Shown: positions 35,579-37,466 of the stretch, piece by piece
How the letters are laid out: every line of letters begins with the position of its first letter
Position numbering within the stretch: the stretch's first letter is position 1
Source: a virus
Direction: 5' to 3' (one strand)
DNA length: 64,000 bases
Virus genome (UHGV): UHGV-0060833
Program-made: the position numbers and the translations under genes
The notes under the pieces: model-generated
What the model was told of the DNA's origin: nothing
Databases searched by the model: none
What the model saw: the letters and a program-made list of their open reading frames with translations, nothing else

Positions 35579-35621
35579 TGATTTTTATGCGCAGCTGGAC
35601 GTAAACTCCTCTTCAGACCTA

Positions 35622-35655
35622 ATAACTTCGTATAGCATACATTATACGAAGTTAT
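35622..35655. other. loxP site-specific recombination site
   Basis: Exact ATAACTTCGTATA-GCATACAT-TATACGAAGTTAT. Confidence 0.98.
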
Positions 35656-35843
35656 CTTAAGGGTTATTGAACATGATCAATTTACCTGTAAATCCATACA
35701 GTTCAATACATTACAGGTCAAATAGTGATCACTTGATCATTTGATCAAGGTTGCGCTACGTAAAATCTGCGAAATGTTGGCAGTGTTAGTGCTCCAGATT
35801 TCGCGTAGCGCACTTAGCACCACCAATCAATCAGAGGTGAAAA

Positions 35844-36065
35844 ATGGGATATTCAGCTGCTAAAGTGTCCACTCATATTGAGCTTGAGAAAAACCGTGGT
35901 TACTGGCGGGCAAAAGGGTTTGATCGTGATAGTTGTCAACTGTCATTATCGCGCGGTGAAGAGAAAATAGAACGCACGCGCGGTCGCTGGCGTTTCTATG
36001 ACGAGAACCATAAACAGGTAAAGGCAGAGCCGATCCTGTACACTTTACTTAAAACCATTATCTGA
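35844..36065 (+). CDS. Small basic protein encoded between loxP and cre
   Basis: GAGGTG RBS 6 nt before ATG; 73 aa; stop 8 nt before cre ATG. Confidence 0.4.
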   Translation: MGYSAAKVSTHIELEKNRGYWRAKGFDRDSCQLSLSRGEEKIERTRGRWRFYDENHKQVKAEPILYTLLKTII

Positions 36066-36072
36066 GTGTTAA

Positions 36073-37104
36073 ATGTCCAATTTACTGACCGTACACCAAA
36101 ATTTGCCTGCATTACCGGTCGATGCAACGAGTGATGAGGTTCGCAAGAACCTGATGGACATGTTCAGGGATCGCCAGGCGTTTTCTGAGCATACCTGGAA
36201 AATGCTTCTGTCCGTTTGCCGGTCGTGGGCGGCATGGTGCAAGTTGAATAACCGGAAATGGTTTCCCGCAGAACCTGAAGATGTTCGCGATTATCTTCTA
36301 TATCTTCAGGCGCGCGGTCTGGCAGTAAAAACTATCCAGCAACATTTGGGCCAGCTAAACATGCTTCATCGTCGGTCCGGGCTGCCACGACCAAGTGACA
36401 GCAATGCTGTTTCACTGGTCATGCGGCGGATCCGAAAAGAAAACGTTGATGCCGGTGAACGTGCAAAACAGGCACTGGCGTTCGAACGCACTGATTTCGA
36501 CCAGGTTCGTTCACTCATAGAAAATAGCGATCGCTGCCAGGATATACGTAATCTGGCATTTCTGGGGATTGCTTATAACACCCTGTTACGTATAGCCGAA
36601 ATTGCCAGGATCAGGGTCAAAGATATCTCACGTACTGACGGTGGGAGAATGTTAATCCATATTGGCAGAACGAAAACGCTGGTTAGCACCGCAGGTGTAG
36701 AGAAGGCACTTAGCCTGGGGGTAACTAAACTGGTCGAGCGATGGATTTCTGTCTCTGGTGTAGCTGAGGATCCGAATAACTACCTGTTTTGCCGCGTCAG
36801 AAAAAATGGTGTTGCCTCGCCATCATCCACCAGCCAGCTATCAACTCGCGCCCTGGAAGGGATTTTTGAAGCAACTCACCGATTGATTTACGGAGCTAAG
36901 GATGACTCTGGCCAGAGGTACCTGGCCTGGTCTGGACACAGTGCCCGTGTCGGAGCCGCGCGAGATATGGCCCGCGCCGGAGTTTCAATACCGGAGATCA
37001 TGCAAGCTGGTGGCTGGACCAACGTAAATATTGTCATGAACTATATCCGTAACCTGGATAGTGAAACAGGGGCAATGGTGCGCCTGCTGGAAGATGGCGA
37101 TTAG
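36073..37104 (+). CDS. cre: Cre tyrosine recombinase
   Basis: 343 aa, MSNLLTVHQNLPALPVDATSDEVRKNLMDMFRDRQAFSEHTWKMLLSVCRSWAAWCKLNNRKWFPAEPEDVRDYLLYLQARGLAVKTIQQHL..., recognised as Cre. Confidence 0.97.
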   Translation: MSNLLTVHQNLPALPVDATSDEVRKNLMDMFRDRQAFSEHTWKMLLSVCRSWAAWCKLNNRKWFPAEPEDVRDYLLYLQARGLAVKTIQQHLGQLNMLHRRSGLPRPSDSNAVSLVMRRIRKENVDAGERAKQALAFERTDFDQVRSLIENSDRCQDIRNLAFLGIAYNTLLRIAEIARIRVKDISRTDGGRMLIHIGRTKTLVSTAGVEKALSLGVTKLVERWISVSGVAEDPNNYLFCRVRKNGVASPSSTSQLSTRALEGIFEATHRLIYGAKDDSGQRYLAWSGHSARVGAARDMARAGVSIPEIMQAGGWTNVNIVMNYIRNLDSETGAMVRLLEDGD

Positions 37105-37121
37105 CCATTAACGCGTAAATG

Positions 37122-37138
37122 ATTGCTCTAATTCTTTG
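37122..37138 (+). promoter_or_regulatory. C1 operator-like site between cre and cra
   Basis: ATTGCTCTAATTCTTTG. Confidence 0.55.
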
Positions 37139-37154
37139 ATATTTATGGCGACAT

Positions 37155-37466
37155 ATGAGAAAGAATTTCAACATCGACGGAAAATATGTAGTGCTGTCAG
37201 TGAGCACTAATATTCAGTCGCCAGCCGTCATTGTCACTGTAAAGCTGAGCGATAGAATGCCTGATATTGACTCAATATCCGTTGCGTTCCCTGTCAGAAG
37301 TATGCGTAGTGCTGAACATTTCGTGATGAATGCCACCGAGGAAGAAGCACGGCGCGGTTTTGCTAAAGTGATGTCTGAGTTTGGCGAATTTTTGGGGCAC
37401 GTTGACAAAGCCCTCTCAATCAGTTCAGCAAGGTCCAAAGCATTAACAGCTTCCATGATGAAATAA
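37155..37466 (+). CDS. Hypothetical protein downstream of cre (P1 cra position)
   Basis: 103-aa ORF; name by position only. Confidence 0.5.
   Translation: MRKNFNIDGKYVVLSVSTNIQSPAVIVTVKLSDRMPDIDSISVAFPVRSMRSAEHFVMNATEEEARRGFAKVMSEFGEFLGHVDKALSISSARSKALTASMMK

Follow-up and report, generated by a model that had tools for sequence, protein, structure and literature searches.

The small gene between loxP and cre in a P1-like phage is cra, a selected but dispensable protein-coding gene with relatives away from Cre

Between loxP and the recombinase gene cre of virus genome UHGV-0060833 (a stretch of 64,000 nucleotides, here called the window) lies a small open reading frame, and the locus raises the question of whether this ORF is a genuine gene and, if so, whether its product serves the recombinase beside which it is encoded. 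A sequence-only reading had drawn attention to it in a region described as usually treated as the cre promoter leader. Database comparisons identify the ORF as gene cra of phage P1, which is already known. A megablast search with positions 35600–36120 returned 20 phage records with at least 80% query coverage and 97–99% identity, and the region is 97–99% identical to the corresponding DNA of P1, P7, phiW39, and SJ46. In the record of the P1 cre region (X03453) the ORF appears as “pot. ORF1 (aa 1-73)” and has a putative rRNA-binding site assigned to it, the P1 reference genome (NC_005856) lists it as cra with a “putative cre associated function,” the P7 record (AF503408) names it upf0.2, and the SJ46 and phiW39 records call its product a “putative Cre-associated (regulatory) protein.” The gene is also mentioned in two publications (PMC2409434; PMC10695390). 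Since the records annotate the ORF beside three cre promoters, the region has been regarded as more than a promoter leader, and the oversight that the sequence-only reading implied did not occur; the ORF is not new, having been annotated already in X03453, NC_005856, and the P7 record.

The correspondence to P1 is close. P1 Cra (P1_gp002, YP_006471.1) is encoded at the same place between loxP and cre and has the same length of 73 aa; the window protein differs from it by two amino-acid changes and from P7 Upf0.2 by three, and identical proteins are encoded on at least 18 IMG/VR contigs. The loxP-cra-cre layout, with cra on the cre strand, is that of NC_005856, X03453, and AF503408 (Table 1). 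The leader of the window contains four GATC sites, as in P7, against three in the P1 reference record, and there is otherwise no substantive difference from P1. At the family level, residues 3–73 of the protein match profile positions 1–72 (of 72) of phrog_804 with an E-value of 7.9e-35.

Table 1. Coordinates of cra and of the surrounding elements in the window.
Feature	Position	Strand	Evidence
loxP, 13-8-13 (ATAACTTCGTATA GCATACAT TATACGAAGTTAT)	35622–35655	.	Sequence; lox site in matching records
LexA-box-like CTGT-N8-ACAG, between loxP and pR1	35686–35701	.	LexA site in P1 and P7 records
pR1 (P3cre), -35 TTGATC with Dam GATC, -10 TAAAAT	35741–35766	+	NC_005856 and X03453 annotation only
Inverted repeat, 17-nt arms 35753–35769 and 35795–35811, 25-nt loop	35753–35811	.	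Sequence; also detected in L010
Shine-Dalgarno GAGGTG of cra	35834–35839	+	Sequence; putative rRNA-binding site in X03453
cra coding sequence (73 aa + stop)	35844–36065	+	ORF call, record annotation, phrog_804, dN/dS, pN/pS
pR2 (P2cre), inside cra, -35 TTGATC (GATC 35922–35925), -10 CATTAT	35920–35949	+	NC_005856 and X03453 annotations
pR3 (P1cre), inside cra 3' end, -35 TGTACA, -10 (C)ATTAT	36037–36061	+	NC_005856 and X03453 annotations
Spacer GTGTTAA, cra stop to cre start	36066–36072	+	7 nt
cre, downstream gene, 343 aa	36073–37104	+	cre anti-SD -2.5 kcal/mol vs background median -2.4

The ORF starts with ATG and encodes the protein MGYSAAKVSTHIELEKNRGYWRAKGFDRDSCQLSLSRGEEKIERTRGRWRFYDENHKQVKAEPILYTLLKTII, which is basic as had been stated (pI 9.61; 15 lysine and arginine against 10 aspartate and glutamate residues). 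The strong ribosome-binding site that had been claimed for it is borne out by an anti-Shine-Dalgarno pairing energy of -7.1 kcal/mol; 20-mers drawn at random from the window have their 5th percentile at -6.3. Two distances need adjustment. The start had been placed 6 nt after GAGGTG, which applies only when counting from the GAGG core, the true gap being 4 nt; and the end had been placed 8 nt before the cre ATG, while there are 7 intervening nucleotides between the last base of the stop codon (36065) and the first base of cre (36073), the A of the ATG being the eighth base past the stop. The antisense frames of cra are interrupted by stops in the window. When the 418-nt lox-cre stretch was shuffled, approximately 7% of the shuffles had an ATG-initiated ORF of 73 codons or more in any of the six frames, so that the length of the cra ORF alone is within chance expectation; the ORF stands above chance because its protein is conserved, not because of its length.

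This conservation is extensive. Full-length Cra homologs with identities down to 58% are encoded in P1-like plasmid-prophages of Klebsiella, Salmonella, and Cronobacter, and although the proteins diverge by approximately 40% in amino-acid sequence, the cra frame is uninterrupted in every divergent lineage. In comparisons with relatives of 58–63% identity, dN/dS was 0.10–0.20 in the cra frame against 1.1–2.2 in the two shifted frames of the same alignment; these ratios cover all pairs for which dS could be estimated, synonymous sites being near saturation and dN 0.25–0.36. Among ten sequences down to 58% identity, 35 residues of Cra are invariant. The conservation check across P1-like genomes that the sequence-only reading had proposed thus speaks for the gene, the frame being conserved and the low dN/dS being confined to it. 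Within the close P1 clade (88 loci with 31 distinct cra sequences), 26 synonymous and 20 non-synonymous variants segregate in cra, corresponding to a pN/pS of 0.22, compared to 0.08 for cre from the same loci. Purifying selection therefore acts on cra, more weakly than on cre. The gene is also among the P1 genes quantified by RNA-seq of P1vir. Judged from its sequence evolution, it is almost certain that cra gives rise to a protein on which selection acts, and the explanation that best covers the locus as a whole, namely that the ORF is the known cra, the first gene of the P1-type cra-cre transcription unit and a real, selected protein-coding gene, is in our assessment very likely correct.

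Selection at the DNA level may be superimposed on the 3' end of the gene. Synonymous codon diversity drops along cra from 0.70 in the first third to 0.55 in the second and 0.45 in the last, and at I64, Y66, and T67, within or adjoining the TGTACA -35 element of pR3, all lineages that retain the respective residue encode it by one and the same codon. Small as this sample is, the pattern suggests an overlapping constraint on the DNA sequence at this end of the gene.

Disrupted alleles of cra occur among close relatives. They comprise frameshifts (P0043, P0044), stops at codon 58 (P0012, P0015), and in-frame deletions between two RGxWR motifs (P0035, P0013). These motifs are located at codons 18–22 (RGYWR, approximately 35895–35909) and codons 46–50 (RGRWR, approximately 35979–35993), and the deletion alleles, which encode 45 aa (P0035) and 64 aa (P0013), are joined at or near the repeats. 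P0043 is a genuine 1-nt deletion in codons 27–28 (TTGATCG to TTGA-GG) that removes a base from the -35 hexamer of pR2 and destroys the GATC site at 35922. It is found in ENA, Logan, and NCBI assemblies, with 138 collection blocks listed in the index, and cre is intact downstream. A frame disrupted in close relatives, which the sequence-only reading had regarded as grounds for rejecting the ORF, was thus found in a minority of alleles, while most are intact and selection is clearly purifying. In a CRISPRi screen, cra had an efficiency of plating of 0.66 and was scored as non-essential for plaque formation, and older data cited in the same study led to the same conclusion (PMC10695390). Given the frameshift alleles with intact cre and the non-essential score in the CRISPRi screen, cra is selected yet dispensable.

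The DNA around cra carries several further elements. The positions of the three cre promoters rest on GenBank record annotations; a consensus scan of 35600–37200 recovered none of the three and revealed no promoter or terminator. Only pR1 is annotated upstream of cra, pR2 and pR3 being located within it, and pR3 ends 11 nt before the cre ATG. GATC sites are present in the leader at 35675, 35727, 35735, and 35743 and inside cra at 35922 and 36032. The arms of loxP are identical in divergent relatives. Six lineages share the CTG and TCCATACAG parts of the LexA-box-like site without variation; in the P1 annotation, the LexA site overlaps the divergent promoter P2coi. The inverted repeat, which overlaps the -10 element of pR1 and the start of the leader, has conserved arms and a variable loop across six lineages. 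It was rejected as a terminator, as no T-run follows it, and may be an operator for a regulator. Searches against Rfam gave no credible match, the only hit being a snoRNA model with an E-value of 0.88. A lox-like stretch was also encountered in an unexpected place: 43 nt of Lactococcus phage Q33 (JX564242.1/NC_049809.1, positions 17548–17590), located in the annotated portal gene, are 95% identical to the loxP region.

How cra relates to cre can be approached through the arrangement of the two genes; cra precedes cre in all the P1-like lineages examined. The gap between them measures 7 nt in every P1-like haplotype in which both genes are adjacent, except for one divergent locus (L014) where a Cra of 41% identity ends 8 nt upstream of a Cre of 64% identity. 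The sequence of the 7-nt spacer varies by lineage (GTGTTAA, GCAGACA, CTAACTT, TTAAGCT). The Shine-Dalgarno sequence of cra is strong in all lineages (-6.4 to -12.0 kcal/mol). In front of cre, by contrast, pairing amounts to no more than +0.7 to -2.5 kcal/mol in six of the seven lineages, where the background median is -2.4; L014 again departs from this pattern, with a usable site of -5.9 kcal/mol. A conserved RNA structure at the cra-cre junction that would hide the cre start was not found (consensus energy -2.8 kcal/mol).

Four forms of the operon were observed, namely lox-leader-cra-cre (the window and P1), lox-leader-356 aa-cra-cre, lox-leader-68 aa-356 aa-cra-cre, and lox-leader-cra-131 aa-cre. 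The additional genes between the lox leader and cra are found in divergent P1-like plasmid-prophages (L005, L008, and L010, 2698–4004; L211 and L212, 2934–4004). They belong to phrog_19934 (68 aa) and phrog_7674 (356 aa), both of which have no assigned function, and the 356-aa gene and cra overlap by ATGA. The 68-aa and 356-aa genes are both absent from P1 and the window, where cra takes the first-gene slot behind a homologous leader. The 131-aa gene between cra and cre, which some close P1 relatives carry (phrog_20152; L196, 9202–9597; L209, 5882–6277 on the minus strand; also in L202 and L197) had a PADLOC match to JetC with an E-value of 0.01, which is weak and probably noise. In L196 and L209 its stop codon and the cre start codon share an ATGA overlap, and a Shine-Dalgarno sequence is again absent in front of cre (+1.5 kcal/mol).

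Termination-reinitiation is a general mechanism by which bacteria and phages express translationally coupled gene pairs. The cra-cre pair resembles such pairs in its conserved 7-nt gap, or the 4-nt ATGA overlap in the insert variant, and in the combination of a strong Shine-Dalgarno sequence on the upstream gene with none on the downstream gene. It differs from them in that the junction contains no inhibitory RNA structure to be melted and that internal promoters offer a bypass. Based on the constant 7-nt gap of varied sequence, the near lack of a Shine-Dalgarno sequence in front of cre, and the ATGA overlap in the insert variant, ribosomes that finish cra on transcripts from the Dam-sensitive pR1 would reinitiate 7 nt further on at cre, and translation of cra would set part of the Cre level; from the sequence evidence at hand, we regard the chances for and against this coupling as evenly balanced. 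The translational linkage to cre that the sequence-only reading had suggested has thereby gained indirect support. Transcripts from pR2 and pR3, which start inside cra, would provide cra-independent messages for cre that are probably nearly leaderless. The constant gap could instead reflect the spacing of pR3 to the cre start. Moreover, translation of the P0043 allele ends approximately 100 nt before cre, and since this allele persists in many assemblies with cre intact, coupling is not indispensable.

The distribution of the Cra family bears on the second part of the question. An exhaustive profile search and a second one yielded only small proteins of 65–81 aa with the Cra signature, apart from one match to a 1,499-aa protein (P0054) that was rejected as a low-complexity match to ankyrin repeats; divergent loci were also sought with hand-written degenerate DNA patterns. 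The signature residues E13, G19, R22, A23, K24, G25, F26, R37, I42, W49, L65, L68, L69, and K70 are all present in the window protein; in the 55 family members compared, each is either invariant or conserved to at least 90%. Apart from the P1-like elements, three types of context were found. In SSU5-like phage-plasmids, SSU5_068 (“putative Cre-associated protein”) and Cyrano CYRAN_62 (“P1 Cra protein”) are 70-aa proteins with approximately 40–44% identity to Cra that share the signature E-x-x-K-x-x-G-Y-W-R-A-K-G-F ... W ... L-L-K-x-I, and the start of their genes overlaps the end of the preceding gene. Unlike in P1, no cre or lox is located nearby and no neighboring gene is common to the P1 locus; the gene closes a series of small genes that follows an exonuclease/recombinase module, and it is convergent with repA. 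In total, 83 loci of this type were collected, and none of them contains a Cre-like ORF within the extent of the locus sequence. Some SSU5 and Cyrano records carry the “Cre-associated” name with no Cre nearby.

The second type is represented by 272 phage records of Kuttervirus-type phages, which have genomes of roughly 130–158 kb and are not known to have a plasmid lifestyle. Their homologs (for example Marshall_89 and the Salmonella phage ST-W77 protein) are longer, with 79–81 aa, share approximately 31–37% identity, and show the same predicted secondary-structure pattern in the alignment. In contrast to P1 there is no Cre, and in Marshall the homolog is encoded among unrelated hypothetical genes. 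At the extreme end of the Enterococcus phage Efm 3-10 record (OR844942.1, positions 3–98), 32 residues are 97% identical to a Kuttervirus Cra homolog; this match may represent a contaminating read or an assembly artifact. In the third type, found on metagenomic contigs, a 73-aa Cra (P0048-type) stands divergent beside a gene pair for an S24 peptidase and a Y-family polymerase (umuD/umuC-like; L011, 2142–3834 and 3949–4170). No recombinase is present in the Kuttervirus-type and umuDC-adjacent contexts. All-against-all comparison of the neighboring ORFs revealed no partner gene common to the contexts of the family, which share only Cra. The “Cre-associated” name is thus only positional. As Cra is the sole protein common to these contexts, its activity is unlikely to be Cre-specific, and its constant place beside cre in the P1 lineage may be largely inherited. 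A further misnomer was encountered in the databases: NCBI calls many Cra-family proteins of 68–73 aa “creatininase” (P0003, P0005, P0006, P0024, P0025, P0030, P0032, and others). An identity as creatininase was rejected, because no Pfam or NCBIfam model matches Cra-family proteins, and the label looks like a propagated naming error.

Structure prediction with AlphaFold2, using an alignment of 55 sequences, gave a model with a pLDDT of 87 and a pTM of 0.68. The predicted elements are helices at residues 5–16 and 18–23, β-strands at 34–37, 40–45, 48–52, and 58–62, and a C-terminal helix at 65–71, so that Cra is confidently predicted to fold as a helix, a four-stranded β-meander, and a helix. Scans of Cra and three distant homologs against Pfam, NCBIfam, and PADLOC gave no match, PHROGs assigned the protein only to phrog_804, a family with unassigned function, and a profile search against PDB sequences returned nothing below an E-value of 0.08. 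A Foldseek search against viral models matched only uncharacterized small phage proteins and gave no informative structural match. As a small basic protein encoded beside a tyrosine recombinase, Cra resembles excisionases or recombination directionality factors such as lambda Xis. In contrast to these, it does not show the Xis-like (winged-helix) fold, no Xis-like or other DNA-binding fold being detected above noise, and its family members do not consistently co-occur with a site-specific recombinase.

With the whole of this evidence at hand, the alternatives to a selected protein-coding gene can be weighed. The ORF might be a chance open frame in the promoter and leader region that is conserved only through the overlapping pR2 and pR3, an idea to which the frequency of ORFs of equal length among the shuffles, the two annotated promoters within the ORF, the lower synonymous diversity toward its 3' end, and the existence of several disrupted alleles would lend themselves. 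It is hardly credible, because substitutions gather at synonymous sites in the cra frame only, the frame has remained open in all divergent lineages, distant homologs stand as separate genes in other phage groups, and in divergent relatives the protein is conserved while pR2 is not; the frame-specific dN/dS, the distant homologs, and the pN/pS already contradict it. Scarcely more attractive, and in our view very improbable, is the proposal that the ORF is a translated leader in which selection acts on the act of translating, for coupling or protection of the mRNA, and the peptide has no function. The strong Shine-Dalgarno sequence of cra, its absence from cre, the fixed 7-nt gap, and the non-essentiality of cra would agree with such a leader, but the amino-acid sequence itself is kept, as indicated by the low dN/dS at near-saturated synonymous sites and the 35 invariant residues. 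In addition, unrelated phages that have no cre behind the gene have conserved the same family, and the sequence is predicted to fold into a confident compact domain.

Closer to the historical name of the gene is the view that Cra is a Cre-specific accessory protein or regulator that binds Cre, lox, or the cre leader (for example at the inverted repeat) and thereby tunes recombination or cre transcription. Besides the name, which implies such a role, the position of cra ahead of cre in all P1-like lineages examined, though other operon genes come and go, the small size and basic character of the protein, and the overlap of a conserved inverted repeat with pR1 would fit this view. We nevertheless consider it unlikely. 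Homologs with the same signature occur in SSU5-like, Kuttervirus-type, and umuDC-adjacent contexts with no Cre-like gene nearby and no neighbor common to these contexts, natural frameshift alleles leave cre intact, and the fold searches gave no DNA-binding candidate above noise; synteny within one phage lineage may simply be due to common descent. Furthermore, Cre recombines lox in vitro and in eukaryotic cells without a phage cofactor. We find it rather likely, judging from sequence comparisons, that the biochemical activity of Cra is independent of Cre. The protein would most plausibly bind nucleic acid or a host protein in an accessory function that lytic growth and, in some natural lineages, plasmid persistence do not require. 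Genes in its neighborhood are often related to DNA damage or recombination, namely the LexA box and ref in P1, the exonuclease/recombinase module in SSU5, and the umuDC-like pair in the third type. A more far-reaching combination, which we put forward tentatively and hold to be possible rather than probable, is that Cra is the founding member of a widespread family of small enterobacterial-phage proteins with a Cre-unrelated activity in binding host proteins or nucleic acid, and that in P1-like elements its gene would additionally serve as a translational launch pad for a cre devoid of a Shine-Dalgarno sequence, tying the dosage of Cre to a Dam-sensitive and perhaps LexA-sensitive promoter.

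As a discovery the ORF matters little, having been in the sequence record, with a gene name, since the cre region was first deposited. What emerges is that P1, which ranks among the phages most widely used in molecular biology, carries in cra a well-behaved gene under selection, and that the labels “Cre-associated” and “creatininase” are both misleading for a family that is also found without Cre. In its native setting, cre apparently has no ribosome-binding site of its own; the use of Cre/lox as a tool is unaffected by this. If the coupling is real, the natural dosage of Cre would be set through cra, which would bear on the control of dimer resolution in P1-type plasmids.
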